Shown piece after piece: positions 2,229-64,000 of a stretch of 64,000 nucleotides of DNA. A program made the translations under genes and the position numbers. The notes beneath the pieces are model-generated. The model ran no database searches and was not told the origin of the DNA. It was given only the letters and a program-made list of their open reading frames with translations. This stretch comes from an uncultured Eubacteriales bacterium (GTDB lineage: Bacteria; Bacillota; Clostridia; Oscillospirales; Acutalibacteraceae). Location: contig ONCR01000011.1 of the NCBI GenBank assembly GCA_900316345.1, forward strand, positions 7,257-71,256. Direction: 5' to 3'. Positions within the stretch are counted from its first letter, which is position 1. Every line of letters starts with the position of its first letter.

Positions 2229-2287
2229 AGGAATCACCTTTTTACAGTTTTTCACAAATACATTATATAACATTTCTTATTAAAAGT

Positions 2288-11615: not shown

Positions 11616-14600
11616 TTAGCTTATAAAGCTTTCATCCTTATAAGCAAGGTAGGAATAGCTGTCGCCGTAAGCAATCGGCGTAAGAGCGCCGTTATTCAGA
11701 ATTGCAAGGGCGTAAGACTGATTATCGCCCGTTACTGTTGTAAATGCGTCATAGGCAATATTTTCCTGAACGTTTTTGCCGTCATAGCCTACGCTTGCAA
11801 CATAGCCGCCGTCGGGATTTGAATATTCGCCCTTGACGGTTAAAACGCCGTCAACTGCAGCTTCGCTTACCTTAACACTTCCGCTGAGGCTGTATCCGGT
11901 CAAGATATAATTACCTTTAGAGAGGAGGGAATAATCTATACCGTTTACCCTTAGTTTAGTACCGGATACAGTTACTTCATCCTCAGCGGAAGCCGGAAGA
12001 ATATTAACGGTTCTGCCGAACGCGTCAACAATCTTAACCGCGTATTCCGGACATACGGGAGAAGCATAAGCCTTAACCTTGATGTTACTTTGTGTTTTCA
12101 CTTCATATGTTGAGGAATCTACACAAAGCGTTTGAGTATTTTCGCCAAGGCCGTTATCGTCTGTAAGCTCCCACTTATATATTTTTCCGTATTCTTCGGG
12201 AGCTTCAAGCTTAACTACGGAGCCGTAAGCATACTCGCCCGTACCGTCAACATTGCTGTAGAGCACACCGTTTTCGTCAACAACCGAAAAATCAACAGAA
12301 AAGGTCTGAACGCTGAGTTCAACATTATTTTCGTTAATAGCGGTAAGAAGCTCTGTTACGCGTTTATCGGATTCATTAATCAAATCCTGTGTGCCTATTT
12401 CTCGTTGTTCGTTATAATCGTTTTCATCAAATCTGTCGGTCGTTTTAAACGCGTCAAACTTCCTTTTAGCTTCGGCAAGGGCGCTGTTAGCCTCATCGCT
12501 GTACTTCTCGTGGTCAAGCGTTTCGTAAACAAGGTTCATATAGTTATAAACCGAAACATCAACACCCTCAACCTTTTCGTGGTTGGTTTTATCAACAACA
12601 CAAACAAAGGTTGCTAAATCGTTGTCCTCGCTGTCATAACCGAAGAGATGCTTTCTTCCGCCGGCAATAAGCGCTTCACGGGAAACTCTGAGGTTTTCTG
12701 CCGCCGTCTCAGCAGTGCTCTTATCGGTATAGATGTTTGACATAACGGCGTTAATTTCGTCCTTCGCCGTCTGAAGCGCCGCTTCGTAATCATCCCAAAG
12801 CTTCATATCAAAGCAATCGTAATTTGTATCGTAATCAAAGGAAATTACGATTTCCTGCCTTAAGTCCTCATATTCCTCGTCCTTATCAAATTCGCCTTCT
12901 TCAACAATTTCCGCGGCCTTTTCCATATCTGTGCAGGCGCCGTTAATCTTATCAACCGCTGTTTTAACGCCTGTTTCAATATTGGCAGCATAGTCAATGG
13001 TACCCATTGAAATATCTATACCCGTTACGCCGTCAACCTTTTTAAGAAAGTCCATAATTTCAGCAGCGCCCGTATCGCTGTTAGGAATAGCGTTAAACAC
13101 ATCCTTCTGTTCGGAGAGCTTCTTTAAAACAGGAACGATGTTGATTACATAAATCGGGGTTTGCTCATCTGAGTTTGTGTCTGATGTTTTTACGCTCGTT
13201 TCAGAGGTACCGCTACCCGTTCTTGCTCTCCAGCTTAATACAAATTTCTTTGATGTTGCTTCGGTTACTCCGGCGAAATCTGTTGCGCCGCTAATATATT
13301 TAATACCGTTAGCATAGCCGTTTCTTGCCTCACGGCCGCTCTTGGAATTATGCTTTTTATCGGCAAAAATATACGGAGTAACGCTGCTGTCCTTCGTATC
13401 GCCCGCGGTAATATAAGCGGTAATGTGATTTGTTGTGCTGTAATATGAGCTGTCATACTGAGCAACGGAGGTGCCGTCCATGCAGCCTGACCAGTTCAGC
13501 GCAAGAGAATCCATATTCATACTGTCGTCGTCATCGTGGTCCGCTTCGGCAATACCCTTCCAAAGGTGGTTAATGATATTGAAGTTTGCAGTATTAATAA
13601 GGCTTACAGTATAAACATAACGTTTCGTTTCGTTAATACTCAAAAGCGGACTCGCCGTGTTGTAGCCGACGTACTGAACAGGTAGCTTTGCATCATTAAT
13701 GCCGTCATATAACAGAACTGTGGGCGAATAGTAAACATAGTTATTGATGTCGCCTTTATTAGCAAAACGCTCGCCTACATGGTTTAAGCCCTGCTGCCAG
13801 TAAATGATATTATCATAAAGGCTTGTAACCTCTGAACTTTTAGTATTTGTTGTAAAGGTTGAGAAGGTAGGCACAACGTTTGCAGACTCCATATCAAAAT
13901 CCGTCATAGCTTCAAGATTATCGTGGAAGCTGACAACAAGCTCCTCAAGTGTCGGGTCCTCAAACTCGGTTGTGTCGCCGTAAGTGTAAGCGTCAATATA
14001 TTCCTTAGCTTTAATGTAATCCACATAGGTGTTATACATATTCATATACACCATTGTATTTTCGCCGTCGATAGCGGCAATTTTGCGCTCATAATCCTTA
14101 ACATACTCGATAAGCGTGTTCATCTGTGCCGAAATGCTTGACGGCTTAAGGTTCTGAAGGCCTGCGATAGCCTTGTCCATATCCTCGCTGTATTTATCAG
14201 CATAATAAACAACGTCGGAAGCAAAGTTGTAATTTGCAGGATTAAGGCTTGTTGCGGCGTCAAATGCACTGAAAATGCTTTCAAGTCCGCCGGCTTTATA
14301 ATCGGAAACCGCTGAAATATACTGTGCAGCATCCTCGCCTGCTGCGGCAATGGCTTCGCTCATCTTTTTCTGATTAATAAGGTAAATGCCGTTACTCCAG
14401 GACATTGAATATTCCGTACCGTCAGAGGAATCGCTACCGTTGTCGCCGTAAGCGTTCCATGATGTTTTACCAATAACCTTAACATTTTCGTCGAACGCTC
14501 CGCCTTTATAAATAATAGAGTTCTTAAGGCTTACTGCTGAATTGCTTGAACCGACTTGTATTAAATTTGCATTTGAGCCCGACGGAGCCGTTGCCGCAAG

Positions 14601-15266
14601 AGTAAGACCTGTTCCTGCATTCCAGTTGAAATCAACATTTCCGCCATACCAGATATCGTTTTTCATTTTGAAATCATCGTTTTCAACAATGTAGATACCC
14701 TTTGCTTTATAGGCATAACGGGAGCCTTCCTTTAATCCGCTCATAACAGGAACGCTAATTGGATTTACACCGTCATAGAGAAATACGCAACGCGGATAGT
14801 AAATATACGCAAAGCAGCCGTAAACAAGCAATCCTCTCTTACGGAGAATCTCTGTACCGCCCGTAAATGTGGTATCAGTTCCCTTATAAGCAACAAGATT
14901 GTTATAGTAACCGCTGTCAATCGTAACGCCGTTAATTGAAGCAGTACCCGTTGCGGTAATTCCTGTATAAGCGGTCATCTGCTCGGTTTGCTGAACAAGA
15001 GCAACCGTTGCGCCTTCAAGATCGACGGTTCTTCCGTTATCATAGGCATTAGCGGCGCCTATTGCGCTTTTATAGGCTGTATATGCCTTTGACATATTTG
15101 TGTAAACCGTTCCGTCCATTTTTGCTTCGTATGCTTCAATTGCCGAAGCAAGAGCTTCTCGTTCGGCTGAATCAGCAGACGCGGTAAACGGAAACACGGT
15201 TAATGCCGTAAGCACCATAACGATTGACATAAGCAAAGCAAATGCTTTTTTCGTAAGCTTTTTCAT
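11616..15266 (-). CDS. Large secreted surface protein (1216 aa) with a signal peptide, helical FIVAR-like segments and an internally duplicated beta-rich domain
   Basis: ORF 11616..15308. I prefer the ATG at 15266 (MKKLTKKAFALLMSIVMVLTALTVFPFTASA/DSAE), which has AGGAGG 8 nt upstream. The longer GTG start at 15308 lies inside the leader terminator hairpin. Confidence 0.8.
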   Translation of the reverse strand: MKKLTKKAFALLMSIVMVLTALTVFPFTASADSAEREALASAIEAYEAKMDGTVYTNMSKAYTAYKSAIGAANAYDNGRTVDLEGATVALVQQTEQMTAYTGITATGTASINGVTIDSGYYNNLVAYKGTDTTFTGGTEILRKRGLLVYGCFAYIYYPRCVFLYDGVNPISVPVMSGLKEGSRYAYKAKGIYIVENDDFKMKNDIWYGGNVDFNWNAGTGLTLAATAPSGSNANLIQVGSSNSAVSLKNSIIYKGGAFDENVKVIGKTSWNAYGDNGSDSSDGTEYSMSWSNGIYLINQKKMSEAIAAAGEDAAQYISAVSDYKAGGLESIFSAFDAATSLNPANYNFASDVVYYADKYSEDMDKAIAGLQNLKPSSISAQMNTLIEYVKDYERKIAAIDGENTMVYMNMYNTYVDYIKAKEYIDAYTYGDTTEFEDPTLEELVVSFHDNLEAMTDFDMESANVVPTFSTFTTNTKSSEVTSLYDNIIYWQQGLNHVGERFANKGDINNYVYYSPTVLLYDGINDAKLPVQYVGYNTASPLLSINETKRYVYTVSLINTANFNIINHLWKGIAEADHDDDDSMNMDSLALNWSGCMDGTSVAQYDSSYYSTTNHITAYITAGDTKDSSVTPYIFADKKHNSKSGREARNGYANGIKYISGATDFAGVTEATSKKFVLSWRARTGSGTSETSVKTSDTNSDEQTPIYVINIVPVLKKLSEQKDVFNAIPNSDTGAAEIMDFLKKVDGVTGIDISMGTIDYAANIETGVKTAVDKINGACTDMEKAAEIVEEGEFDKDEEYEDLRQEIVISFDYDTNYDCFDMKLWDDYEAALQTAKDEINAVMSNIYTDKSTAETAAENLRVSREALIAGGRKHLFGYDSEDNDLATFVCVVDKTNHEKVEGVDVSVYNYMNLVYETLDHEKYSDEANSALAEAKRKFDAFKTTDRFDENDYNEQREIGTQDLINESDKRVTELLTAINENNVELSVQTFSVDFSVVDENGVLYSNVDGTGEYAYGSVVKLEAPEEYGKIYKWELTDDNGLGENTQTLCVDSSTYEVKTQSNIKVKAYASPVCPEYAVKIVDAFGRTVNILPASAEDEVTVSGTKLRVNGIDYSLLSKGNYILTGYSLSGSVKVSEAAVDGVLTVKGEYSNPDGGYVASVGYDGKNVQENIAYDAFTTVTGDNQSYALAILNNGALTPIAYGDSYSYLAYKDESFIS

Positions 15267-15282
15267 TTTTAGTTCCTCCTTT

Positions 15283-15332
15283 AAAAATAAAAAGACCGAC
15301 TGCAACACTTAAAATAAGAATTGCAGCCGGTC
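15283..15332 (-). terminator. Riboswitch expression platform: intrinsic terminator in the leader of the surface-protein gene
   Basis: Minus strand reads GACCGGCTGCAA (15332..15321), a 15-nt loop, then TTGCAGTCGGTC (15305..15294). This is 12 bp with one G-U pair, followed by TTTTTATTTTT. The 5' arm is the 3' end of the conserved aptamer-like element. Confidence 0.75.
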
Positions 15333-15400
15333 GATCATACAATAAATTGGTTAGACACCTTGCTTTGCGTCACCGCCTTTCGACGGCTTTGCCCTTTAAT
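15321..15400 (-). promoter_or_regulatory. c-di-GMP-I (GEMM-I) riboswitch-like aptamer, copy 1
   Basis: Minus strand reads AUUAAAGGGCAAAGCCGUCGAAAGGCGGUGACGCAAAGCAAGGUGUCUAACC...GAUCGACCGGCUGCAA. It contains the GGCAAA / GNRA loop CGAAAG / GACGCAAAGC core of GEMM-I. It lies in the 5' leader of a surface-protein gene, and a paralogous copy sits 1.2 kb upstream. Confidence 0.8.
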
Positions 15401-16502
15401 CTGATTTTCTTTTTAATTGTTTTTCCTTATACATATTACGGTCCGCGCGTTGAATCAAATCTTCAAACGCTTCGCCGTTTTCCGGAGTTCCCCTCGCCCG
15501 TCCGAAAGAACAGGTTAAGCCTTCGGCTACTCCTTCGATTTTAAGGGAATCCAGGTCATTATGTATTTTGTTTTTTAAGGCTTCAAAATCATAATTATTA
15601 AGCCCTATGTTTATAATTAAAAACTCGTCTCCGCCATAGCGGTAAATATATTTTTCATCAATATTTGCCTTAAAAACATCGGCAATTGAAGCAATAACCC
15701 TGTCGCCGACTATATGGCCGTAGGTATCGTTAATATGCTTAAAATTATCACAGTCACACATAACAAGATAAAGGTGCTTATTGTAATAATTAACGCTGTC
15801 TTCAATAAGCGCATAGCGGTTTTTAAGCTTAGTAAGAACGTCGTATCTTACTGCCCTTTCAAGCGCGGAATTAAGCGAGGCAACCTTTTGGCGGCCCAAT
15901 TGCTGTTTTCGCATAAGGTGATACTTTGCCGAGCTTGCTACAATACAGATACAGGCAAAGGCAAAGAAATTCAGAATATGAATCGATGGCGCTCCGTCGA
16001 AATGAACCAAAACAATGTAACAAACGGTAAACGAAACGGAAAGAAGAATAAGGCTGATATAAGGTTTGATTATTATAAACGCAGCATATGTTACCATTAC
16101 AATATAAAAGGTTATTATATCCTTGCCATAAATATAGTGATTATACGAAAGATAGATGCTGTAAGCAGTAAGAATGGAAAAAGCAATAACCGTAACAACG
16201 GTAATCTTTATATGGGAAACAAATTCATAATTCTTTGCACGTTCAGAATAAAAGTAAAAGAACAAACAGAAAAATACAACAAATGCAACTGACATTGTGC
16301 TTTCCTTTATGTTTCTTACCTGAACAAGACCGGTTGCAACAAAAAGATAAGTAAACAGCTCATAAACTATAACAACTAAAGATATACTGTTAACATTTTT
16401 GATATTAGCTTTGTCCATTTCATTTGTAACACTTAAGGAATCCTTAGGACAGAGTATACTTTTAAGCCAAGATAAAAGATTTTTCATAAATAACCTTAAC
16501 AT
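15396..16502 (-). CDS. Membrane-bound diguanylate cyclase (polytopic N-terminal domain plus GGDEF domain)
   Basis: About 6 predicted TM helices are followed by a GGDEF domain (DVLTKLKNRYAL...DNFKHINDTYGH..GD...RYGGDEFLI...ADRNMYKEK). The start is ambiguous: ATG at 16502 abuts the leader terminator U-tract, and Met-6 at 16487 is the alternative. Confidence 0.9.
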   Translation of the reverse strand: MLRLFMKNLLSWLKSILCPKDSLSVTNEMDKANIKNVNSISLVVIVYELFTYLFVATGLVQVRNIKESTMSVAFVVFFCLFFYFYSERAKNYEFVSHIKITVVTVIAFSILTAYSIYLSYNHYIYGKDIITFYIVMVTYAAFIIIKPYISLILLSVSFTVCYIVLVHFDGAPSIHILNFFAFACICIVASSAKYHLMRKQQLGRQKVASLNSALERAVRYDVLTKLKNRYALIEDSVNYYNKHLYLVMCDCDNFKHINDTYGHIVGDRVIASIADVFKANIDEKYIYRYGGDEFLIINIGLNNYDFEALKNKIHNDLDSLKIEGVAEGLTCSFGRARGTPENGEAFEDLIQRADRNMYKEKQLKRKSD

Positions 16503-16503
16503 A

Positions 16504-16562
16504 TAAAAATCGACCGCAAATATATCGCATTGAAAAAAGCAATACTTTTGCGGCCGGTCGAT
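16504..16562 (-). terminator. Riboswitch expression platform: terminator-like hairpin in the leader of the cyclase gene
   Basis: On the minus strand, AUCGACC(ggcc)GCAAA (16562..16547) pairs with UUUGCGGUCGAU (16520..16509) and is followed by UUUUUA. The 26-nt loop contains a small hairpin. The 5' arm overlaps the 3' end of the aptamer-like element. Confidence 0.6.
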
Positions 16563-16630
16563 CGTATAGTTTTAGCTACTTAGACACCATAGCTTTGCGC
16601 CACCGCCTTTCGACGGGTTTGCCAAATATT
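16547..16630 (-). promoter_or_regulatory. c-di-GMP-I (GEMM-I) riboswitch-like aptamer, copy 2
   Basis: Minus strand reads UUUGGCAAACCCGUCGAAAGGCGGUGGCGCAAAGCUAUGGUGUCUAAGUAGCUAAAACUAUACGAUCGACCGGCCGC. It has the same core as copy 1 and lies between a consensus promoter and the GGDEF gene. Confidence 0.78.
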
Positions 16631-16647
16631 AATAAATTGTTAACATT

Positions 16648-25542: not shown

Positions 25543-26270
25543 TTATTTCACTTTGACCTTAACGGTTTTTACGATACCGTTCTGTGCGTAAACATAGATG
25601 GTAACGGTACCCTTTTTCTTTGCTTTTATATTGCCCTTTGCGTCTACGGTTGCAATCTTTTTATTGCTGCTTTCGTAGCGGAACTTGGCAATATGAGTTG
25701 CCACCTTGCCCTTGCTTTGAAGCGTGGCTTTGATTTTAGTTTTCTTTCCTTTTTTAAGAGTAATCTTTGCTTTCTTTAACTTAATACCAGTCGGGTTGCC
25801 CTTCTTGCCGCCCGGGGTTGCGCAGTGAACGGATTTGGATTTGCTCATTATCCTGTTACCCGCGGCAGTCTTTTTGTAGGCTACAACAACGTATTTATAA
25901 TACTTGCCCTTCTTTAGCTTTTTGAAGGTATATTTAACCGCTTTCGGATTTGCTACTGTTGCCGCCCTTTCAAGTTTGTTTCCGCAGGGCGCGGCATAAA
26001 TTATATATCCGTCCGCTCCGCTGACTGCTTTCCACGAAACGGTAATATTGGTTTTCTTTGTTGTTGCTTTAAGCTTAAGCGGCGCATAAGCCGAGCCTGA
26101 AACATCCTTTTTATCCGTGTTGGTTTTCTTGATAAGCTCCTCCGTTTTCTCCTCGGTTGGCATTGCCGCCTCTTCGGGAGTGAGTGCGGGAGCGGGCTCC
26201 TTGTAATCGGGATTTGCCGCGCCGCAACGCTTGCACACTTTTTCATTATCCCCGAAATCGTGACCGAGCG
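25543..26270 (-). repeat. Direct repeat copy A (3' coding module shared by two surface-protein genes)
   Basis: Near-identical at nucleotide level to 28595..29322. The encoded 241-aa modules differ at 12 positions by my count. Confidence 0.9.
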
Positions 26271-28584
26271 CAGAGATTTCTGCTACATTGGTTTTTTCGC
26301 CGCAGAGAGAGCATACGTCTGCAGTAAAGCCCTTTTCGGTACAGGTCGGCTGAACGGTGGTTGCAACATTATTATGCGCGTGAGTATTATTGTGAATTTC
26401 GCCTGCGGTATGCTTAATACTGTCGTCGCCGTAGCGCACCTTAGCATTGAGCGTATTGGACACAACGGTTGCGTTTGTTTCGCCGATATCAACAGTATAC
26501 TCGCCGTCCGTTACAACCGTATTACTCGGAACGGTTGCTCCGCCGAGGCTGATAATTCCTATATCGCTTGAATTGATTGTGTTACTTGAAACAACGCCAT
26601 CCGAATTTACTACCGAAGCATCGCCCGCCCCGAGTGCGGAAACACCGACGAGATAATCGCCTGCGGCAGTAATATTATTATTAAATGCGGTTACGTGCTT
26701 CTTTTTGTCGCTTGAGTTTTCGTAAAAGCGAACTCCGAGAGAGAAATGTCCTTTAATATCTATCTCGTTTTCTACCGCCGCAAGGTCAGCTGCGCCTGCG
26801 GAGTTAGATACAAAATTCACTCCGTAAGCCATTTCCGCTTCAGCGTTTATTTTATTCAGAACAACTGAATTATTAAAGTCTGCGCCGCCTATAATCATAT
26901 CCACGGCAGCGGCGTAATACTCCGCCTTACAGCTGACCATATTTTCCGTGATGTTGCTTCTCTTCGTGTTGGTACTGAAGGCGTAAGCGTAGGTTTTTCC
27001 TTCCACGCTTACCGCATTACCGTTTGCGTTAAAGACAGCATTTGCTGTGGCGGGATTATCCGTTGTAACGGCGTAAACTGTATCATAGCTGCCGACGGCT
27101 TCCGTCGCTTTCAAAACAACGGTATTACCGATAAAGTTCACTTCGTTACAGTTTGAAAATGCAATTCCCGCAGAGGTCGGCACTCCTACCCAGCTACCTG
27201 AGCCTGCAGGCTTTTCCTGCCAGATTGTCTGCTCGGAAGCAAGGCGGATATCAAAGGTATTATCCTTTACCGTAACGGCGGAAATCGGGCTGATTTCATC
27301 GCCGCTTACGACAAGCGCACGGCGCAATTTGCCCTTCGTTCTGTCGCCCGTAAAGGTGATGTTATTATTAGTGAGCATTACGCCGCTTGCATTTTCTATC
27401 TTCACGGCGTATTCGCCCGTCTGCGTAATAGTAAGCCCGTCAATGCTGACATTGTCAGCGGTAATCAGGAACGAGATACCGCTGAAGGTTGCATTTTCAG
27501 AGGTAATGTCAACCGTCTGATTAACCGTGATTGTTGAAACATCAAGACCGGCGAAATCGCCGCTAAAGATGAGCGCGGGCTTATCCGTAGGTTTCAGAAC
27601 GCCGCTCGCGTCAAAGTAATCGTGGAAATTATCCTTGGTTACGGTTATCGCATTCGGCGCAATAATAACCTCACCGGAATCAACAAGCGACGCGCCCTTG
27701 GCATATGCCACTTTTTCGCCGAGCGTGATTTTTTCCTGCGGGAAGCTCACACCGCCTATGGCGGAGTTTACCGTCAGTTTTCCGCCGTTTACGGTAAAGC
27801 TGCAGCGGTAATCCTTATCATCGGGCTGCTCGGGGTTGGCAACATAAGGCTCAACGGTGATGCCGTAGCCGTCGGTTGAGGTAAGTGAAACTGTACCGCT
27901 TTCCATAACGAAGGCGTGCTGCGAATCGTCGCTGTTTCCGAAATGAAGCGCGGAATGGTAGTTGCTGACATTGAGCGTAGCGCCGTTTACGGTAACGGTT
28001 GCATTCTGACTGGCAACAATACCGTCATAGTTCGTTGTGGTTTTATTGACTGTAACGGTGCAATCGAGAAAATCAATATTGTGGTTAACCCATATGCTTG
28101 CGCACTGAGAATTAGTAACGGTGAGCGTTGCGCCGTCCTTAACGGTAAGGTTACCGCCGGGCGTTTCCCAATCGCCGATATAGGTTCCGTAATACGGGTT
28201 GTTGATAGCGAGGCTTCCGCCGCCCTTAATAATGACATCGCAGCCGCCCGCGGTATCAATGCCGTCGGCGTAAGTATTTGTACTTTCAAGCACATTGTCG
28301 CCTTCTAAAACGATGTTCAGCGTTGGAAGCTCGCTGTAAATCATCGCTTCGTACCACGGCTTAAATTCATAAGTATCCGAAATGCTTGCGCCGCTCAGCG
28401 TTAGAGTACTTCCCGCCGCGTCGAACGAAACCGTGCCGTCGCCTAAAACGTCGGCTGCGTTCTCTGAATTAACCTGAAAGCCGCCTACAAACAGCGCATA
28501 TTCTTCCGAATCCGCATACGCGCTCATAGGGAATGCGCTGATAAGCATAACAAGCGCAATCAACAATGATAAAAACTTTTTCAT
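25543..28584 (-). CDS. Secreted surface protein with a signal peptide, right-handed beta-helix-like repeats, a Cys-rich ALGH motif, a Lys-rich linker, and FN3-like plus Big_2-like C-terminal domains
   Basis: 1013 aa. Signal peptide MKKFLSLLIALVMLISAFPMSAYA. It has long Asn/Thr/Gly/Val-rich beta-helix-like repeats, and the C-terminal 241 aa are nearly identical to the neighbour. Confidence 0.8.
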   Translation of the reverse strand: MKKFLSLLIALVMLISAFPMSAYADSEEYALFVGGFQVNSENAADVLGDGTVSFDAAGSTLTLSGASISDTYEFKPWYEAMIYSELPTLNIVLEGDNVLESTNTYADGIDTAGGCDVIIKGGGSLAINNPYYGTYIGDWETPGGNLTVKDGATLTVTNSQCASIWVNHNIDFLDCTVTVNKTTTNYDGIVASQNATVTVNGATLNVSNYHSALHFGNSDDSQHAFVMESGTVSLTSTDGYGITVEPYVANPEQPDDKDYRCSFTVNGGKLTVNSAIGGVSFPQEKITLGEKVAYAKGASLVDSGEVIIAPNAITVTKDNFHDYFDASGVLKPTDKPALIFSGDFAGLDVSTITVNQTVDITSENATFSGISFLITADNVSIDGLTITQTGEYAVKIENASGVMLTNNNITFTGDRTKGKLRRALVVSGDEISPISAVTVKDNTFDIRLASEQTIWQEKPAGSGSWVGVPTSAGIAFSNCNEVNFIGNTVVLKATEAVGSYDTVYAVTTDNPATANAVFNANGNAVSVEGKTYAYAFSTNTKRSNITENMVSCKAEYYAAAVDMIIGGADFNNSVVLNKINAEAEMAYGVNFVSNSAGAADLAAVENEIDIKGHFSLGVRFYENSSDKKKHVTAFNNNITAAGDYLVGVSALGAGDASVVNSDGVVSSNTINSSDIGIISLGGATVPSNTVVTDGEYTVDIGETNATVVSNTLNAKVRYGDDSIKHTAGEIHNNTHAHNNVATTVQPTCTEKGFTADVCSLCGEKTNVAEISALGHDFGDNEKVCKRCGAANPDYKEPAPALTPEEAAMPTEEKTEELIKKTNTDKKDVSGSAYAPLKLKATTKKTNITVSWKAVSGADGYIIYAAPCGNKLERAATVANPKAVKYTFKKLKKGKYYKYVVVAYKKTAAGNRIMSKSKSVHCATPGGKKGNPTGIKLKKAKITLKKGKKTKIKATLQSKGKVATHIAKFRYESSNKKIATVDAKGNIKAKKKGTVTIYVYAQNGIVKTVKVKVK

Positions 28585-28594
28585 TTTTCTCTCC

Positions 28595-29322
28595 TTATTT
28601 CACTTTGACTTTGATTGTTCTACAGAGTCCGTTCTGTGCGTAAACATAAATGGTAACGGTACCCTTTTTCTTCGCTTTGATATTGCCTTTTGAATCTACG
28701 GTTGCAATCTTTTTATTGCTGCTTTCGTAGCGGAATTTTGCAATATGGGTTGCAACCTTGCCTTTGCTTAGAAGCGTGGCTTTGATTTTCGTTTTCTTGC
28801 CTTTTTTAAGAGTAATCTTTGCTTTCTTTAACTTAATACCCGTCGGGTTGCCTTTTTTACCGCCCGGGGTTGCACAGTGAACAGATTTTGATTTACTCAT
28901 TATCCTGTTGCCCGCGGCAGTCTTTTTGTAGGCTACGACGATATATTTATAATACTTACCCTTCTTTAGCTTTTTGAAGGTATATTTAACCGCTTTCGGA
29001 TTTGCTACGGTTGCCGCCCTTTCAAGCTTGTTTCCGCAGGGCGCGGCATAAATTATATATCCGTCCGCTCCGCTGACTGTTTTCCACGAAACGGTAATAT
29101 TGGTTTTCTTTGTTGTTGCTTTAAGCTTAAGCGGCGCATAAGCCGAGCCTGAAACGTCCTTTTTATCCGTGTTGGTTTTCTTGATAAGCTCCTCCGTTTT
29201 CTCCTCCGTAGGCATCGCCGCCTCCTCGGGAGTCAGAACGGGAGCGGGCTCTTTGTAATTGGGATTAGCAACGTTGCAACGCTTGCACACTTTTTCGTTG
29301 TCGCCGAAATCGTGACCGAGCG
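28595..29322 (-). repeat. Direct repeat copy B (3' coding module shared by two surface-protein genes)
   Basis: Partner of 25543..26270. Similarity ends sharply upstream of the LGHDFGDNEKVCKRC motif. Confidence 0.9.
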
Positions 29323-31081
29323 GAGCGGTTATTCCGTAGCCGACAATATCGGCAATTTCTGTTGTTCCAGTTTCCTCTTCATAGTATTTTCCGCAAACAT
29401 CGCAAACGTAATATGCGCTTTTACCGCCGTTTAAGCAATCCGCCTGAACTTCATCAACCTTTGTAAGCTGATGGAGCGCGAGAGTTCCGTATTCAAACGA
29501 ATTAACGGGGTCGGCTTCGCCGCAACGGGAGCAGCTGTAATAATACTCTGCAACGTTTTTACAGGTTGCCGCGGTTTTAAGGTACTTATCCTCCGTGCTT
29601 TGCGCCGAATAATCGTGGTCCAAAGCGTCAATGATTCCCCACGTATCTATATCCGCAATTACGGTATTTCCGTTTTCATCCTCAAAGTCTTTTCCGCAGC
29701 CGGAGCAATGATAATACGCTTCCTTTCCCGCGGTAACGCAATCCGCTGCAACCTCAGCAACAGGTGTCATTGTGTGAGTATGAAGATACAACGCGGCTTC
29801 GTCGCCGAGCATTTTCACCTCATATCCGTCGTCGGAGAAAAAGAACTCTGACGGCTCATCGTTTTCGTGATAGGTTTTGAAGCCCTCGGTGAAAGCTATC
29901 GGATTTTCCGCATCCGGAACTTTTTCCGAATCGATTCCGATAGACGCACCGTCTGTTAATTCATCTGCTATAGTAATAATCCTGTCGGTATATTGGTTTG
30001 ACAGGTACATATTTGATTCGGAATACTCGGTAGTATATTCCGTATAGTTATAATTGTATATTTTTTTCTCTTTCTTGTTTCCTGCTATAACCACGTTTCC
30101 CGAAATTGTGCAGGTGCCGCCGATAGTTACGCCGACTCCGCGGGGGTTTCGGGGGAGGTAGCCGCCGGTCTGGTAAGAAGCAATATTTTCGGTAATGCTG
30201 CCACCGGTCATAACAAAGGAACCACTGGAATATACGCCCGCGCCGAACCCTGAGTTATAATCATCGGCGTGAGTGGTATTTTTAGTGATGCTTCCGCCGT
30301 TCATTATAAACGAGCTGCCTTCTCCCTGACTAACGCCGCCGCCGGAGCCGGAGCTGTTTTCGGATATAACACCGTCGTTCATTACAAATGAATTGCCGCT
30401 GCCGTAAATGGATACGCCGCCTCCGTTTGAGCCGGCGCTGTTTTTACTTATTTCGCCGCCGTTCATCGTAAAGGTTCCGCCGTTCCTTAAGCATACGCCG
30501 CCGCCGGGGTTATAAGAAGAGTTATTCGTTATCTTTCCGCCGTGCATATTGAAGGTGCCGCCTTCGGTAACAAAAACGCCGCCTCCGGTTCCGTAATTCG
30601 ACGCGTTGTTTTCGGTAACTTCACCGCCGTACATATTCAGAGTACCACCCATAACGCAGAAGCCGCCTCCGGTATAAATTGTTCCCGAATCACTGTACTG
30701 ACTGCTGTAACCGCCGGTTATTTTTCCCGTTTCGCCGCTGTCATACAGGTTCAGCGTTCCGCTGACATAGATAACATAACCGTTTCTTGTTCTGCTTTCC
30801 ATATTACGGTCAACCGTAAAGCCGTTAAGGTCAAGGGTAACGGTTTTACCGTAGGGAACGGAAAGACCGCTGTCCCTGTTGTGAACGGGGTCAACCGCGT
30901 CCTCGCCGAGCTTTATATTACCGCCGAGCGCCATTTTTTCTTTCAGCGCAGACCAGCTGTAAACTACCCACGGGTTATCCTCTGTTCCGCTTCCCGTTGT
31001 TGGGGTTTCGCTTTCGGCAAATACGGGGGTTGCCGAAAGAAGAAGCATTATTGCCAATAAAATCGATAAAAATTTTTTCAT
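28595..31081 (-). CDS. Secreted surface protein with a signal peptide, Pmp-like GGG-x-F-x-M-x-GG-x-I-x-x-N repeats, three Cys-rich motifs and the shared FN3-like/Big_2-like C-terminal module
   Basis: ORF 28595..31141. I prefer the Met at 31081 (MKKFLSILLAIMLLLSATPVFA), which has a GAGGGAG RBS. About 6 repeats of ~27 aa (GGGV.....GTF.M.GG.I..N) suggest a polymorphic-membrane-protein-like beta-helix. Confidence 0.8.
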   Translation of the reverse strand: MKKFLSILLAIMLLLSATPVFAESETPTTGSGTEDNPWVVYSWSALKEKMALGGNIKLGEDAVDPVHNRDSGLSVPYGKTVTLDLNGFTVDRNMESRTRNGYVIYVSGTLNLYDSGETGKITGGYSSQYSDSGTIYTGGGFCVMGGTLNMYGGEVTENNASNYGTGGGVFVTEGGTFNMHGGKITNNSSYNPGGGVCLRNGGTFTMNGGEISKNSAGSNGGGVSIYGSGNSFVMNDGVISENSSGSGGGVSQGEGSSFIMNGGSITKNTTHADDYNSGFGAGVYSSGSFVMTGGSITENIASYQTGGYLPRNPRGVGVTIGGTCTISGNVVIAGNKKEKKIYNYNYTEYTTEYSESNMYLSNQYTDRIITIADELTDGASIGIDSEKVPDAENPIAFTEGFKTYHENDEPSEFFFSDDGYEVKMLGDEAALYLHTHTMTPVAEVAADCVTAGKEAYYHCSGCGKDFEDENGNTVIADIDTWGIIDALDHDYSAQSTEDKYLKTAATCKNVAEYYYSCSRCGEADPVNSFEYGTLALHQLTKVDEVQADCLNGGKSAYYVCDVCGKYYEEETGTTEIADIVGYGITAPLGHDFGDNEKVCKRCNVANPNYKEPAPVLTPEEAAMPTEEKTEELIKKTNTDKKDVSGSAYAPLKLKATTKKTNITVSWKTVSGADGYIIYAAPCGNKLERAATVANPKAVKYTFKKLKKGKYYKYIVVAYKKTAAGNRIMSKSKSVHCATPGGKKGNPTGIKLKKAKITLKKGKKTKIKATLLSKGKVATHIAKFRYESSNKKIATVDSKGNIKAKKKGTVTIYVYAQNGLCRTIKVKVK

Positions 31082-31203
31082 AACTATACTCCCTCTCATT
31101 TTTGAAAAAATGTATGGTATGCGCTGATTATATATTATCACAAAAAATATCTAATGTAAAGTTAACTTCATATAAATAGACTTATATTGATTTTAAATAA
31201 CAT

Positions 31204-56952: not shown

Positions 56953-58566
56953 CTATACCTTACTTGCCAGCTCTAAATCGTTAAGAAAAGCTTCAATTTC
57001 ATTTTTTCTGAGCTTCATTGAAGCCATATTAACAATTACTCTTGCCGAAATAGGCATAATTTCTTCTACAATTTCAAGCCCGTTTTCCTTAATTGTTGAG
57101 CCCGTTTCAACAATATCAACAATTCCGTCCGCAAGGCCGAGCAAGGGAGCAAGCTCAACGCTGCCCTCAATTTTAATTATTTCAACGTCCATCCCCCTGC
57201 TTTCAAAGAATTCCTTTGCAACAGCGGGATATTTTGACGCAACAACCTTTCTTTTATAGCCCGAGAAGAAATCTTCGCCCTTCTTGCAGGCAAGCGCAAA
57301 GCGGCATTTGCCTATGCCGAGGTCTATTACCTCATAAAACGAGGAACCGTGCTCAACAATTGTATCCTTGCCGACGATGCCTATATCGCATACGCCGTGT
57401 TCAACATAGGTTATAACATCGGGCGCCTTTGAAAGCACCGCTTCGTATTTATCAACGGGAAGGATAAGCCTTCTGCCCTTATTTTCAAGCTCGGAGGTAT
57501 CAAGCCCCATAGTTTTGAAAAGCGCTACGCTGCTTTTTTCAAGCCTGCCCTTTGTTAAGGCTATTCTTATAGGGCGTTCAACGTTAATTGTTTCTCTCAT
57601 CGCTTCGCATACGGCGCTTACTTCAACGCCGAAACCTATAGCGGGGGCGTTTAAACCGAACTGGCCGAGAAGATTATCATAACGTCCGCCGGAAAGAATG
57701 GTAAGCCCCGAACCCTCTGCATAGCCGTGGAAGATAACACCCGTGTAATAATTGGAACGGTTAACAAGCCCCAGGTCAAGCATTATACTTTCCTTAAGCC
57801 CTAAATCGCAAAGGGCGTCATAAACCTTTTTAAGATAGGCAAGAGCAGCGACAGCATCCCTGTCGTCATAAAGGCGTTTAGCTTCGTCAAGCACCTCCGC
57901 GCCGCCGAAAAGCCTCGGTAGTTTTCTTAAGAGCTGAACCTCTCTGCTGTTTTCGAGCTTATCAAGCATATCGCCGAGAGCGGCGTAGTTTTTCCCCTCA
58001 ATAAGATTACATATATCCGCCCTGCCGTTATCGTCAAGAGCAAGCTTATTAAGGATTGTATTAAAGAAAGCCGCGTTGCCGATTTCAAGCTTAAAGGAAT
58101 TGAGCTTACAGCTTTTAAGGCTTTCAATCGCAAGTTTAATTACTTCAATATCCGCTTCAAAAGAGCCGTCGCCGATAAGCTCAACGCCGCTTTGGGCAAT
58201 CTCGTTAGTTCTTCCCTTAAGGTCCTTATTGCGAACAAAAACGCTTTGATTATAATAAAGCCTTACGGGGAAATCCTCTTTGCCGAGCCTTGTCGCAACC
58301 ATTCGCGCAATAGGCATTGTATTATCGGGGCGAAGAACTGTTGTTCTTCCGGCGGAATCGGTAAGCTTGAACATCTCGTCAGCCTGAATTCCCGTATTAT
58401 CGCTTTTAAAAACGTCAATAAATTCAATAGCGGGAGTAATTACCTTGCGGTATCCCCTATCCTTGAACAAATCGGCAAGAGTATGTTCAACAATCCTTCT
58501 GTCGTCGCATTCCTCAAAAAGGAAATCGCGCGAGCCCTCGGGTGTAATTTTAGAATATCTTTTCAT
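56953..58566 (-). CDS. hisZG: Fused HisZ (ATP-PRT regulatory subunit, aaRS-like) and short-form HisG (ATP phosphoribosyltransferase)
   Basis: ORF 56953..58584; I use the ATG at 58566. The first ~330 aa are HisZ-like (ITPEGSRDFLFEE...VITPAIEF...). The last ~210 aa are HisG-short-like (IRIALTKGRLEK...ILSKAPDVITYVEHGVCDIGIVGKD...ELAPLLGLADGIVDIVETGSTIKENGL). There is no stop between them. Confidence 0.85.
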   Translation of the reverse strand: MKRYSKITPEGSRDFLFEECDDRRIVEHTLADLFKDRGYRKVITPAIEFIDVFKSDNTGIQADEMFKLTDSAGRTTVLRPDNTMPIARMVATRLGKEDFPVRLYYNQSVFVRNKDLKGRTNEIAQSGVELIGDGSFEADIEVIKLAIESLKSCKLNSFKLEIGNAAFFNTILNKLALDDNGRADICNLIEGKNYAALGDMLDKLENSREVQLLRKLPRLFGGAEVLDEAKRLYDDRDAVAALAYLKKVYDALCDLGLKESIMLDLGLVNRSNYYTGVIFHGYAEGSGLTILSGGRYDNLLGQFGLNAPAIGFGVEVSAVCEAMRETINVERPIRIALTKGRLEKSSVALFKTMGLDTSELENKGRRLILPVDKYEAVLSKAPDVITYVEHGVCDIGIVGKDTIVEHGSSFYEVIDLGIGKCRFALACKKGEDFFSGYKRKVVASKYPAVAKEFFESRGMDVEIIKIEGSVELAPLLGLADGIVDIVETGSTIKENGLEIVEEIMPISARVIVNMASMKLRKNEIEAFLNDLELASKV

Positions 58567-58643
58567 AAATAAGCCGCCTTTCACTTTAGCGTGCTAATAT
58601 GCTAACATATTAAAGTAATTCTGTCAACTATTTATTATATTAT

Positions 58644-61600
58644 TTAAAAGAATGAAATCTGCTTTGTTTCGGGAAGGTCGCCAAGGGCTCCTGCATTACG
58701 AAGCGCTTCAACAACCGACTTACCTACTCCGGGCTCGCCTGCTAAATCGTCAGACGCGATGAAGCCTTCGGGATTTCGGCGCACCGCGTCGGCAATGGCA
58801 ATAGCCGCTGTTTCGCCGATACCGTCAATTGCAGAAAACGGAAGTCTTATTTTCCCTTCCTCTATTTTATAAATTCTCCAATCGGATTTATAAAGGTCAA
58901 CGGGAAGAAATTCAAATCCCCTTGCAAGCATTTCAATAACAATCTGGTTAACGACGTAGGTGTTTTCCTCCTTTGCGGTAACCTCAATATTGTTTTTCTT
59001 TTTATTGTTGAATTCCTCCATCTTCTTTTTAACTGCCGCCTTGCCCTGAACGGCGGAAACGGCGTCAATCGCTCCTCCGCGAACGGTAAAATAAGCAGAA
59101 TAAAACTGAAGCGGATAATATATTTTGTACCACGCAATACGAAGCGCGGCTATAACGTACGCCGCGGCGTGAGCCTTCGGGAACATATATTTGATTTTGT
59201 AACACGAATCAATATACCACTGCTCAACGCCGATTTTCTTCATAGCCTCTTCAAAAGGCGGAAGCTCTTTAGGCGCTTTACCCTTACGGGTATACTCCAT
59301 AATCTTAAAGCAATCCTTATTTGAAAGCGGAGATTTTTCGCCCGTTTTGGCTTCATAAGCCTCTGCAACGTGGATAAGGTGAGTCATAATATCGTCACGG
59401 CAGCCTATAACTTCTGAAATCGTGCAGGTTTTGCTGTCAATCAAATCCTTTGCGTTGCCGAGCCAAACGTCCGTTCCGTGGGAAAGACCTGAAATCTGAA
59501 GCAAATCGGCAAAGGTTTTAGGCTTTGCGTCAACAAGCATCTGAATAACGAAAGGCGTTCCCATTTCGGGGATGGCAAGCGTTCCCGTAGGGCAGTCAAT
59601 ATCCTCCTCGCTTACTTGTATCGGGTCAGGCGAGGTTATAAGCTCATAAAGCTTCGGGTCTGACAAATCAACGTCCATTACGGGAATACCCGTTGCGTCC
59701 TCAAGGTATTTATAAAGCGTCGGATTATCGTGGCCGAGCTCGTCAAGCTTTAATAGCGTATCGTGAAGCGAGCGCTTGAAATCAAAATGAGTTGTATAGG
59801 TTCCCTTTTTTTCATCATTTGAGGGATACTGAATCGGGGTAAAATCCTCAACCGTGTATTCATCGGGAACAACAACCATACCGCCCGGGTGCTGACCCGT
59901 TGTTCGCTTAATACCCGTACATCCGATTGTAAGGCGGTCAATTTCCGCCTTCGGAGTGATATTAAGAAGCTCGCGCTCTTCAAGATATTTTCTTACAAAG
60001 CCGTAAGCGGTTTTATCGGCAACGGTTGCCATCGTGCCCGCCTTAAATACGTATTCCTTGCCGAACAAATCCTCGGTAAAGCGGTGAATTTTACTTTGAA
60101 CCTCGCCCGAAAAGTTAAGGTCAATATCGGGCTCCTTGTCGCCGTCGAAGCCGAGGAAGGTTTCAAACGGAATTTCGTGGCCGTCGCGCTTCATAGGCTC
60201 GCCGCATTCGGGGCAATTCTTCGGCGGAAGGTCAAAGCCCGAGCCGTATTCGCCGTGAGTGAAGAATTCGCTGTGTTTGCACTTCTTGCAGTAGTAGTGC
60301 GGCGGAAGCGGATTAACCTCGGAAATACCGCCGAGATGAGCTGCAAGGGACGAGCCTACAGAGCCTCTTGAGCCTACAAGATAGCCGTTTCTTTCGCTTT
60401 CGGCAACAAGACGCTTGGCAATAACATAAAGCACGCCGAAGCCGTGGCCGATAATACTGTCTAGCTCGCGCTGAAGCCTTGAAGCTACAAGCTCGGGGCG
60501 GAATATCGTCCTGAATCATATCGGCAATCTTATTCGGATTATCAATAACAAATTCCTTCGCTCTGTCGCCTGCCCAGGCGAAATCCTCAAGCATTTCCTC
60601 CGTTGTTTTAAAATAAAGCGGAGCCTGATTATCGGCATCGGTAAAGCCCATTGACGCCTGAATAATCGCCCTGAATTTACCGTCCTCTTTATCCATAAAG
60701 TGAACGTCTCCGGTTGCAACAACAAGCTTACCGAGCTTGTCCGCAAGAGCAACAAGCTTTCTGTTGATATCGGTTAAATCCTCTTCGCTGTTAATTTTTG
60801 CGTGAATATCGCGCTCCGAGCGAATCATAAACGCGTTGTTGCCGTTCGGCTGAATTTCAATATAATCGTAAAACGAGGCAAGGCGTTCAAGTTCCTCGTC
60901 GCTCTCTCCGCGAAGAATAGCCTGAATAAGCTCGCCTTGCTCGCAGGCAGAGCCTACAAGTATTCCGTCGCGCTTTTTTGCGAGAAGCGATTTCGGGATA
61001 AGCGGCCTCGTTTTAAAGGTTTTTACGTTTGAATGGGAAATGAGCTCATAAAGGTTCTTTCTTCCGTATTTGCGCTCCTCCTTCGGAATTGAAGAATCAA
61101 GCGAGGTATCCTCCTTAACCAGAAGAATAATATGATGGCGGCGCATTTCTTTGTTTTTCATATTCATAAAATCGGGATAAAGGCTATCGTCAACAAGATA
61201 GCCCTCCATGCCGAGAATAAGCTTTATTTTTCCCTTTGCCGCCGCATACGCTTCGGGAAGCGCCTGAACAACGCCGTGGTCGGTTACCGCAATAGCTTTA
61301 TGGCCCCATTTTATTGCTCTTGAAACAAGCTTTTTAGGTGAGGTTATACCGTCCATTTCGGAAAGCGAGGTATGAAGATGAAGCTCCACTCTCTTTTCCG
61401 GAGCGTTATCCCTCTTCTCCTGTTTCATAACGGTTTCAATGCTTTTAGGACGAAGCACAAACTGGTTTGCGTATTGGTCAAACTGATAAGCGCCGTTAAC
61501 TACAACCGTTGTTCCCTCGCCGATTTTATCAATTATCGGCTCAAGGATATTCTTTCTGTCAAACATTCGGCAGGGCAACGACGAGGTGTAATCCGTAATG

Positions 61601-62370
61601 TCAAAGGAAAACGACTTACTGTCGCCTCGCTTTGTATCCTTGCTTTCGCACTTAAAAATATCGCCCCAAACGGTAATAAAGCCGTCGTCGGGTTTAACGG
61701 TATTAATCGGCTTGGGGATTTCCCTGATAGCTCTGCCGAAAACGACCTTCTTCGTATCCTCGTAAAGCGGAGTATTTCCCCACGGCTTATGAACGGCGTT
61801 CTTTTCCTCTTCAATAAGGCGCTGTTTTATTTCGGCCTCTTTTTTCTTATTTTCCTCAACCTTTTTTTCAACCGCCTCGCGGATTGCTTCCTCCGCATCA
61901 AAGGAACTCACTTCTAAAAATGACACGTCATAGTCAAGGTCAAATTCATCAAGAAGGAGCTTTGAAATAAGGCTGTCAATCCCCTTTTCCTCCAGCAGAG
62001 CTTTTCCGCCTTTTTTAAGGCAAACGGTTAAAACGTTATCCTCAAGCTCTGCTTCAACGCCGTCAAAATAACCGTTAATCATCGCGTTTTCGGCTTTAAT
62101 CGGGGAAAGAATTTTTTCAATATCGTTAAGGATAAAAAGGCTTTGGTCATAGCTCATTTCAAGAATACACTTTTTAAGCTCAAGCGCTTCGGTAAGGGCG
62201 GTTTTAACCCTTGCAAGAACATTGTAATCAATAAGCGTATCGCTAAAAAGCCCGAGAGTCACGGCTCTTGAAGCTTTTCTTACCTTAAACTTTTTTATAT
62301 AAGCAGTTCCGATAAACTGTAAATCGTCATTATTTATGTAGTTTGAAAATAATTCGTAAAACTGAGTCAT
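58644..62370 (-). pseudogene. polC: PolC-type DNA polymerase III alpha subunit. The frame is interrupted as given (two ORFs, 60313..62370 and 58644..60434), and there is no DEDD exonuclease insert.
   Basis: The N-terminal ORF has a PolC N-domain, an OB fold (FDITDYTSS) and PHP motifs (ELHLHT, VTDHG, ATGDVHF). The C-terminal ORF has the palm/fingers ([50 protein letters not shown]). Homology switches frame at the C4 run 60495..60498, and removing one C gives one ~1241-aa ORF. The ATG overlaps the ispG stop (TAATG). Confidence 0.8.
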
Positions 62371-63428
62371 TAAAGCTTGTCTACCTCTTTCATCAATTCG
62401 TCAAGCAAATCTTTTTCATCAACTTTTCTTAATATTTCGCCCTTCTTGAATATCAGCCCGCAACCGTCGCCGCCTGCAATTCCGATATCCGCCTCTCTCG
62501 CCTCGCCCGGGCCGTTAACAATACAGCCCATAACTGCAACCTTAATCGGCTTAGTACAGCCGCGAAGCCTTTCTTCAACCTGCTTTGCAAGGCCTACAAG
62601 GTCAATTTTTGTTCTTCCGCAGGTAGGGCAGGAAATCAGATAAGGACAATCGGTTTTAAGCCCGATAGCCTTAAGAATATCAAAAGCGGCATAAACCTCT
62701 TCAACGGGCTCGTCGGTAAGGCTTACCCTGATTGTATCGCCAATTCCCCTTGTTAAAAGCGAGCCTATTCCGACGGCGGATTTAATAATGCCCATACGCT
62801 TTGTTCCGGCTTCGGTAACGCCGAGATGAAGCGGATAATCGCATTTTTCGGCGGCGAGCTCGTAACAGGCAATCATAGTATTTACATTCGAAGATTTTAT
62901 GGAAATTACTATATCGTCAAAATCAAATTTTTCAAGAAGCGATGCATGGTAAAGCGCGCTTTCAACCATAGCCTCGGGGGTCGGAGAACCGTATTTTTCA
63001 AGTATATGCTTTTCAAGCGAGCCTGAATTTACGCCGATTCTTATAGGAAGCCCCTTTAATTTGCATATTTCGGCAACCGCCTTAACTCTGTCCTCGCTGC
63101 CGATATTGCCGGGATTGATTCTGATTTTATCAATTCCCCTTTCAGCCGCGCCGAGAGCGAGCTTATAGTCAAAATGAATATCGGCAACAAGCGGTACGGT
63201 TGTAGCGTTCTTAATAGGCTCAATCAGCGCAAGCGCCTCTTCATTAGGTACGGCGAAGCGGATAACCTGACAGCCTGCTTTTTCAAGCTCAACAGCCTGC
63301 TTAACGCTTCCCTCAATATCGGAAGCGGGAACATTAAGCATACTTTGAACAAGCACGGGCGAATCTCCGCCGATAAAAGTATTTCCGAGTTTTATTTTTT
63401 TTGTTTGTCTTTTATTCATAATCGTCAC
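62370..63428 (-). CDS. ispG: 4-hydroxy-3-methylbut-2-en-1-yl diphosphate synthase (flavodoxin) IspG/GcpE
   Basis: 352 aa: VLVQSM.N....D...V.Q...LE.AGC..IR.AVP...A....I......PLVADIHFDY.LA and the C-terminal cluster CPTCGR...GC.VNGPGE. Confidence 0.96.
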   Translation of the reverse strand: MTIMNKRQTKKIKLGNTFIGGDSPVLVQSMLNVPASDIEGSVKQAVELEKAGCQVIRFAVPNEEALALIEPIKNATTVPLVADIHFDYKLALGAAERGIDKIRINPGNIGSEDRVKAVAEICKLKGLPIRIGVNSGSLEKHILEKYGSPTPEAMVESALYHASLLEKFDFDDIVISIKSSNVNTMIACYELAAEKCDYPLHLGVTEAGTKRMGIIKSAVGIGSLLTRGIGDTIRVSLTDEPVEEVYAAFDILKAIGLKTDCPYLISCPTCGRTKIDLVGLAKQVEERLRGCTKPIKVAVMGCIVNGPGEAREADIGIAGGDGCGLIFKKGEILRKVDEKDLLDELMKEVDKL

Positions 63429-64000
63429 CTGAACAGCTTTGAAATATCCGAGAAGGTTATTATACTCATAAATCCGAGAAGGATTACCAGCCCTGCGCCG
63501 TTAATCGCCCACTCCCATTTGTCGGGAAGCTTACGTTTGAAAATGCCTTCAAAAATAAGAAGGAAAAGTCTCCAGCCGTCAAGCGCGGGAATCGGGAAAA
63601 GATTGAAAATGCCGACGTTAATTGTGAGCAAAGCCATAATGCGAAGCATTGAATAAGCGCTCATTTTAACAGCGTCAGAGATTATACCGACAGCGCCGAC
63701 AGGGCCGCTCATATCGGAAATTCTAAAATGGCCCGTAACCAAATCGTGAACCGAAAGGAACACCATTCTTGCATACGAAACCCAGTCAAGGAAGGTGTTT
63801 TTAATAACGTTGCCAACGGTTTTTTCAACCCCGATAAGCCAAAAATCCATATGAATAATCTGTCTGCCTTCATATTCTTCGGTATCAAAGGTAACGTCAA
63901 GCTTCTTTTCCTCGCCGTTTCTGATAACAATCATTTCGAGCGTATTATCTGAGGAGCGCGAGAAGCCCGTTGAAACGTCCGTTGCGCTGTAAACGCGCAT
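63425..64000 (-). CDS. rseP: RIP metalloprotease RseP/RasP (site-2 protease), 3' part only; the gene continues beyond the window
   Basis: The C-terminal 191 aa are visible: a PDZ-like segment, then the membrane segment with NLFPIPALDGWRLFLL (compare the LPIPxLDGG motif). The frame is open to the window edge, and the gene overlaps the ispG start by 4 nt. Confidence 0.85.
   Translation of the reverse strand: MRVYSATDVSTGFSRSSDNTLEMIVIRNGEEKKLDVTFDTEEYEGRQIIHMDFWLIGVEKTVGNVIKNTFLDWVSYARMVFLSVHDLVTGHFRISDMSGPVGAVGIISDAVKMSAYSMLRIMALLTINVGIFNLFPIPALDGWRLFLLIFEGIFKRKLPDKWEWAINGAGLVILLGFMSIITFSDISKLFR

Follow-up and report, generated by a model that had tools for sequence, protein, structure and literature searches.

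The window, meaning the whole 64,000-nt stretch of DNA analyzed here, carries on its minus strand a polC-like gene that is confirmed to encode a PolC without the DnaQ/DEDDh exonuclease. The best explanation of the whole, to which we assign a probability of about 0.8, is that this is an orthologous and naturally exonuclease-less (exo-less) polC, that editing, if it takes place in cis, would be performed by the PHP domain, and that the copy at hand was broken by assembly. The gene (58644..62370) was called as two overlapping ORFs, and its features and upstream neighbors are as follows.

60313..62370, minus strand: ORF1, 685 aa
58644..60434, minus strand: ORF2, 596 aa
60499..62370, minus strand: 5′ part of polC (aa 1-624), which stays in frame until the deletion joint
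62173..62361 (NI) and 61798..62121 (NII), together 61798..62361, minus strand: PolC N-terminal domains NI and NII (Pfam PF14480, PF11490)
61435..61680, minus strand: N-terminal OB fold with FDITDYTSS (weak Pfam matches PF01336, PF13742)
60535..61386, minus strand: uninterrupted PHP domain with nine ligands (Pfam PHP, AF2 model, match to 3f2b)
61144..61185, minus strand: 14-residue linker SLYPDFMNMKNKEM (aa 396-409), at the site of the approximately 190-aa DnaQ/DEDDh exonuclease in canonical PolC
61063..61110, minus strand: lineage-specific 16-residue PHP loop insertion DTSLDSSIPKEERKYG (aa 421-436)
60496..60498, minus strand: joint of the 101-nt deletion (alignments and metagenome contigs)
58644..60497, minus strand: 3′ part of polC with palm, thumb, fingers, and HhH, 617 aa plus stop
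60201..60299, minus strand: Zn module, in the 3′ part
60111..60131, minus strand: catalytic PDIDLNF, in the 3′ part
58647..58661, minus strand: C-terminal clamp-type motif QISFF, in the 3′ part
62370..63428, minus strand: ispG (GcpE), immediately upstream of polC
63425..64000, minus strand: rseP (M50 peptidase), upstream of ispG

Both halves of the gene belong to the PolC type represented by the models NF001688 and TIGR01405. Pfam matches in ORF1 comprised NI, NII, OB, and PHP and those in ORF2 comprised pol3_alpha, finger, and HHH_6, and ORF2 scored 943.7 bits against NF001688 (cutoff 873) over model positions 850-1444. The NI/NII and OB domains lie N-terminal to PHP, the core contains a Pol3 palm with D-x-D, fingers, the Zn module, and (HhH)2, and the canonical hallmark of the type, DnaQ/DEDDh inserted in PHP, is missing; what is found is a contiguous PHP with no Exo, which is the NTD+OB+PHP+Pol3+HhH architecture of the exo-less variant. 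The PolC-like N-domain, OB fold, and Zn module that an earlier note on this DNA had recognized were all recovered by Pfam and by coordinates, and its placement of the gene at the canonical ispG-polC locus held as well, with ispG immediately upstream and synteny kept across related loci. Once restored, the protein would be approximately 1275 aa long with the layout NTD-OB-PHP-Pol3-(HhH)2.

At the site where the exonuclease is normally inserted, LILGMEGYLVDD (aa 384-395) is followed by the 14 residues of SLYPDFMNMKNKEM and then by RRHHIILLVKE (aa 410-420), and this exo-free junction falls within the reported interval of 61130..61200; the two PHP halves are joined by just these 14 residues, exactly as the earlier note had described. 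The NCBIfam PolC models match piecewise, with NF001688 aligning ORF1 residues 16-426 to model positions 21-437 and TIGR01405 resuming at residue 434, and they omit approximately 190 model positions at the exonuclease site, a figure estimated from the offset between the models. The domain scan that had been proposed detected no exonuclease domain with either Pfam or NCBIfam, and RNase_T/PF00929 had no Pfam match in ORF1 or ORF2 even at E≤1. An exonuclease HMM, for which the corresponding domains of seven exo-containing relatives were used, found nothing in a six-frame search of the full 64-kb window; the top score was 12.6 bits, antisense to ispG. This agrees with the earlier statement that no ExoI/II/III motif occurs in any frame of 58644..62370 and led us to reject an exonuclease concealed in another frame. 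In a HMMER scan of 1.84 billion cluster representatives, from which the 150 best matches were taken, 101 spanned the junction (40 exo-less and 61 with an exonuclease), and the spacing between TDHG and GSAC was bimodal, at 86-141 aa in exo-less and 217-341 aa in exonuclease-bearing proteins. Given these searches, the 14-aa linker, this bimodality, and a protein approximately 190 aa shorter than exo-containing PolCs, a diverged exonuclease domain hidden in some other part of the ORF or in a different frame is so improbable that it can practically be dismissed.

The PHP domain itself is complete. Its nine ligands (H331, H333, D340, H365, E389, H413, C476, D555, and H557), whose positions were assigned by alignment to G. 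kaustophilus PolC (3f2b), are all present, and where the exonuclease would be there is a short loop, located between ligands five and six. Together they read HHDHEHCDH, which bears out the claim that all nine metal ligands are kept and agrees with the nine-position consensus HHDHEH[C/H]DH given for an 'active' PHP motif (PMC12926913). For the RHH segment, a ligand histidine had been correctly anticipated, but the conserved ligand is H413 and not H412. The eighth ligand lies in ATGDVHF here versus ATGNVHY in 3f2b and 9qpc, two Bacilli-type PolC structures, and the earlier statement that B. subtilis PolC has N in place of this D (GNVHY) fits both of these structures. An AlphaFold2 model of residues 321-624 (mean pLDDT 93, pTM 0.90) shows a complete PHP fold; its top PDB match was 3f2b (TM 0.79, rmsd 2.7 Å, 311 columns), and alignment of full-length PolC 9qpc with the model extended over approximately 500 columns, accommodating the exonuclease of 9qpc. 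The DTSLDSSIPKEERKYG loop sits after the beta-strand bearing H413. The closest approximately 50 species conserve it; E. coprostanoligenes and a few others carry a longer insertion of 27 residues in its place, and more distant exo-less PolCs lack it, as does 3f2b.

When one genome per GTDB species was scanned, 575 relatives were obtained, of which the best 80 loci were analyzed. They belong to Eubacterium sp., Ruminococcaceae, Acutalibacteraceae, and Clostridia MAGs from rumen and gut, include the isolate Eubacterium coprostanoligenes ATCC 51222 (L052), and show 54-86% identity over the PHP region. The survey of PolC lengths and exonuclease content among relatives that the earlier note had suggested returned an exo-less PolC at every one of these best 80 loci: all 80 aligned without an insertion, and no exonuclease domain was detected in any of their frames. 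A single intact ORF of 1244-1325 aa encodes PolC in 68 of the 80, three of which were scanned with Pfam and had the same architecture with no exonuclease, and the linkers are short and of similar length in all 68. None of the nine ligands varies among the 69 sequences formed by the window and these 68 orthologs, nor does PDIDLNF; the position of H412 is occupied by H, Y, N, or F, and the orthologs end in the clamp-type motif Q-[ILM]-S-[LF]-F. Same-strand ispG lies immediately upstream of polC in 77 of the 80 loci and rseP is present in 75.

The split of the window's gene is no simple frameshift, for a 101-nt deletion at 60497 is combined with a shift of frame, and ORF1 past the joint is an out-of-frame run to a stop at 60313. 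The deletion removes 34 conserved residues (consensus about PIPPGTFQP.I.GA.EELTEKCW..AK.LYGDPV) that stand between DDIP and PE[YL]V in 68/68 orthologs and are missing in the window, and NF001688 positions of about 813-850 (roughly 37, an estimate) are absent at the same place; DNA alignment with the orthologs shows a clean 101-nt gap with CC on its flanks. Taken at face value, an assembled sequence in which a deletion and a frameshift remove the start of the palm domain would describe a real pseudogene or a strain-specific knock-out, with replication left to DnaE1 or another polC copy, and the speculation of Timinskas et al. that DnaE1 is the main replicase in some Clostridia, some of which have DnaE1 only, would accommodate such a loss. 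The metagenomes argue otherwise. Logan contigs from eight rumen/gut metagenome runs with near-identical sequence were aligned over 60497, and in each of the eight runs one contig aligned in two pieces meeting at 60497 with 100 unaligned bases between them, which amounts to a net +101 nt relative to the window in 8/8 runs, the same-species 101 nt being deduced from contig coordinates and orthologs and their bases not read directly. No contig among the eight runs supported the deleted form. One contig (X1) matches the window perfectly on the right of the joint but has 6 differing sites on the left, and in another (X9) the pattern is reversed, with identity on the left and 9 differing sites on the right. 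Since the window matches different strains on either side, as is typical of a chimeric assembly join, the split is most likely an artefact in which two strain haplotypes were joined and 101 nt were lost. With the intact allele in 8/8 runs of near-identical strains, 68 intact orthologs, and both halves otherwise stop-free with all catalytic motifs preserved, we regard a pseudogene or knock-out as improbable.

Strain variants in the metagenomes fall almost entirely at third codon positions of each half's own frame, and because of this polC is judged to be under purifying selection in the population. The 68 intact orthologs, the rseP-ispG-polC synteny, and these third-position variants together mark this as the orthologous polC locus, and on the same grounds a decaying second copy was rejected. 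The exo-less PolC is a lineage-wide, selectively maintained state in the Eubacterium coprostanoligenes / Acutalibacteraceae group.

Two scans of JGI metagenome contigs by exact pattern turned up no copy of the intact allele, and a junction-bridging query gave no same-species protein among the proteins listed, all of which were shorter than approximately 530 aa; the protein homology searches listed only proteins below this length and are biased to fragments and frameshifted pieces. Many exo-less PolC 'proteins' in the database are fragments of 400-500 aa with out-of-frame tails that lie on long contigs (for example, P0002, P0004, P0006, P0011, P0025, and P0037). In public metagenome assemblies, frameshift errors appear to split polC often, and the broken polC described here, itself more probably an assembly error than a pseudogene, serves as a warning.

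Among the 150 best matches of the cluster-representative scan, HHDHEHCDH was complete in 37/37 complete exo-less representatives and in 56/57 exo-containing ones. On these sequences, an intact PHP site is the default for these clostridial PolCs and is not peculiar to exo-less forms, and since 56 of 57 exo-containing relatives have the intact motif, it is no signature of compensation. The earlier suggestion that the D-x-H pair and the nine-ligand site mark a special PHP-proofreading adaptation is therefore not supported, all the more so as a 2026 survey (PMC12926913) reported an 'active' PHP alongside DnaQ in most PolCs of Clostridia. A neighbor-joining (NJ) tree of 41 full-length sequences (1159 columns, 100 bootstraps), which is crude and has long star-like deep branches, grouped the window's clade as a monophyletic exo-less group with 99% bootstrap support. 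The other exo-less PolCs were scattered among exo-containing ones, with 9-13 Fitch changes over the 100 bootstraps, which hints that the exonuclease was lost repeatedly within Clostridia. A first NJ tree, based on the PHP region alone (17 changes), was too poorly resolved and was replaced by the full-length tree. A broader proposal, that the PHP center is the sole cis proofreader of exo-less PolCs and that a pre-existing, redundant active PHP editor permitted many independent losses of the DnaQ insert, is put forward tentatively, as we rate its chances slightly below one in two.

The gene is most likely the single-locus orthologous polC of a rumen bacterium in the Eubacterium coprostanoligenes / Acutalibacteraceae group of the class Clostridia. 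Its product is predicted to be a functional replicase subunit, in which polymerization would rely on the conserved PDIDLNF of the palm together with the clamp-type motif at the C-terminus, and 3′-5′ editing, if in cis, would be carried out by the PHP metal center, as in M. tuberculosis DnaE1 (PMC5636811); a co-resident DnaE1 may contribute. By analogy with the mycobacterial enzyme, cis PHP editing in an exo-less PolC is plausible, with odds that we consider close to even. Proofreading might also be provided in trans, by a separate DnaQ-like exonuclease or by the PHP of DnaE1, and the PHP of PolC would then be kept for structural or other roles, such as that of a pyrophosphatase. In favor of this, all Clostridia and Negativicutes are reported to pair PolC with a DnaE1 whose PHP site is described as perfect (PMC3919608), two exo-less PolCs of Acidaminococcus in the supplement of the same paper come from PolC+DnaE1 genomes, and stand-alone DnaQ homologs are common (>3 per proteome; PMC12926913). 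Moreover, a PHP motif that is equally conserved beside a cis DnaQ needs no role as sole proofreader to explain its conservation. Near the gene, however, neither the 64-kb window nor the sequence up to 6 kb from polC at the 80 loci contains a DnaQ-like ORF, and nine ligands that never vary across 68 species speak for a catalytic site over a merely structural one; we consider proofreading in trans less likely than not. The large ORFs scanned in the 64-kb window included none resembling DnaE.

In nature, exo-less PolCs of this kind correspond to the exo-deleted PolC that was engineered for crystallography, and they offer a clean system for asking whether the PHP of a PolC can proofread. They also bear on the division of labor in the poorly understood PolC+DnaE1 replisome of Clostridia.

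Several other features of the window were observed. The minus-strand interval 56953..58584 is a single 543-aa ORF in which a HisZ-like domain (tRNA-synt_His, residues 17-325) is fused to a short-form HisG (residues 386-538), the HisG part being an ATP phosphoribosyltransferase. HisZ and HisG are usually two separate subunits. This hisZ-hisG fusion is found directly downstream of polC in 55 of the 80 related loci. Two c-di-GMP-I riboswitches (15319..15403 and 16546..16633, minus strand) lie in tandem gene leaders, one preceding a 1230-aa ORF (11616..15308) in which Pfam recognized no domain at E≤1e-5 and the other preceding a 368-aa ORF (15396..16502). Two adjacent minus-strand ORFs of 1013 and 848 aa at 25543..31141 have C-terminal Big_2 Ig-like domains, one of them also having fn3, and are probably cell-surface proteins, and a 750-aa BspA-type LRR protein is encoded at 21..2273.

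Compared with canonical PolC (B. subtilis, 3f2b, and 9qpc), the protein shares the N-terminal domains, OB, PHP, Zn module, PDIDLNF, fingers, and HhH, with 41% identity to 3f2b over PHP, and it differs in the absence of the roughly 190-aa DnaQ/DEDDh that is inserted in the canonical PHP. Judging from the GSGSG linker in RRLGSGSGPFHV, we take 3f2b to be an engineered exo-deleted G. kaustophilus PolC construct; its artificial linker occupies the exonuclease site, and it is this construct that the natural protein resembles. The DnaE1 of M. tuberculosis (PMC5636811) is likewise a C-family replicase with a nine-residue PHP metal site and no cis DnaQ, but it has a C-terminal OB and neither the PolC NTD nor the Zn module, and the exonuclease activity of its PHP is experimental, whereas that of the present protein is predicted. 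The literature searched contained no experimental report of PHP exonuclease activity for any PolC.

The novelty implied by the earlier note is not sustained, for the architecture was described in 2014 by Timinskas et al. (PMC3919608), who found that 6% of PolCs have no Exo insertion and that these all occur in Clostridia and Negativicutes, except for one extra copy in Thermotogae; they also asked if DnaE1 might be the principal replicase in such genomes. Here, too, the NCBI lineage is class Clostridia, where PolC pairs with DnaE1. Their table includes, for example, the Acidaminococcus fermentans protein YP_003399045.1 (1191 aa, NTD+OB+PHP+Pol3+HhH, PC+E1, HHDHEHCDH 9/9), and the two exo-less PolCs of Acidaminococcus listed in their supplement have all nine motif residues. 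The A. fermentans protein and the one described here have the same domain order, no Exo in PHP, and the same HHDHEHCDH (9/9), with the C-terminal Q-x-x-x-F clamp motif being QIELF in the former and QISFF in the latter. What sets the window apart from the exo-less PolCs of 2014 is a different lineage, consisting mostly of uncultured gut/rumen MAGs and not listed in the supplements of PMC12926913, together with the 16-residue PHP loop and the 101-nt split. The exo-less PolC is an already-catalogued variant, and the window introduces no new principle; it adds to that variant one more large clade, from gut and rumen, with intact genes in at least 68 species.
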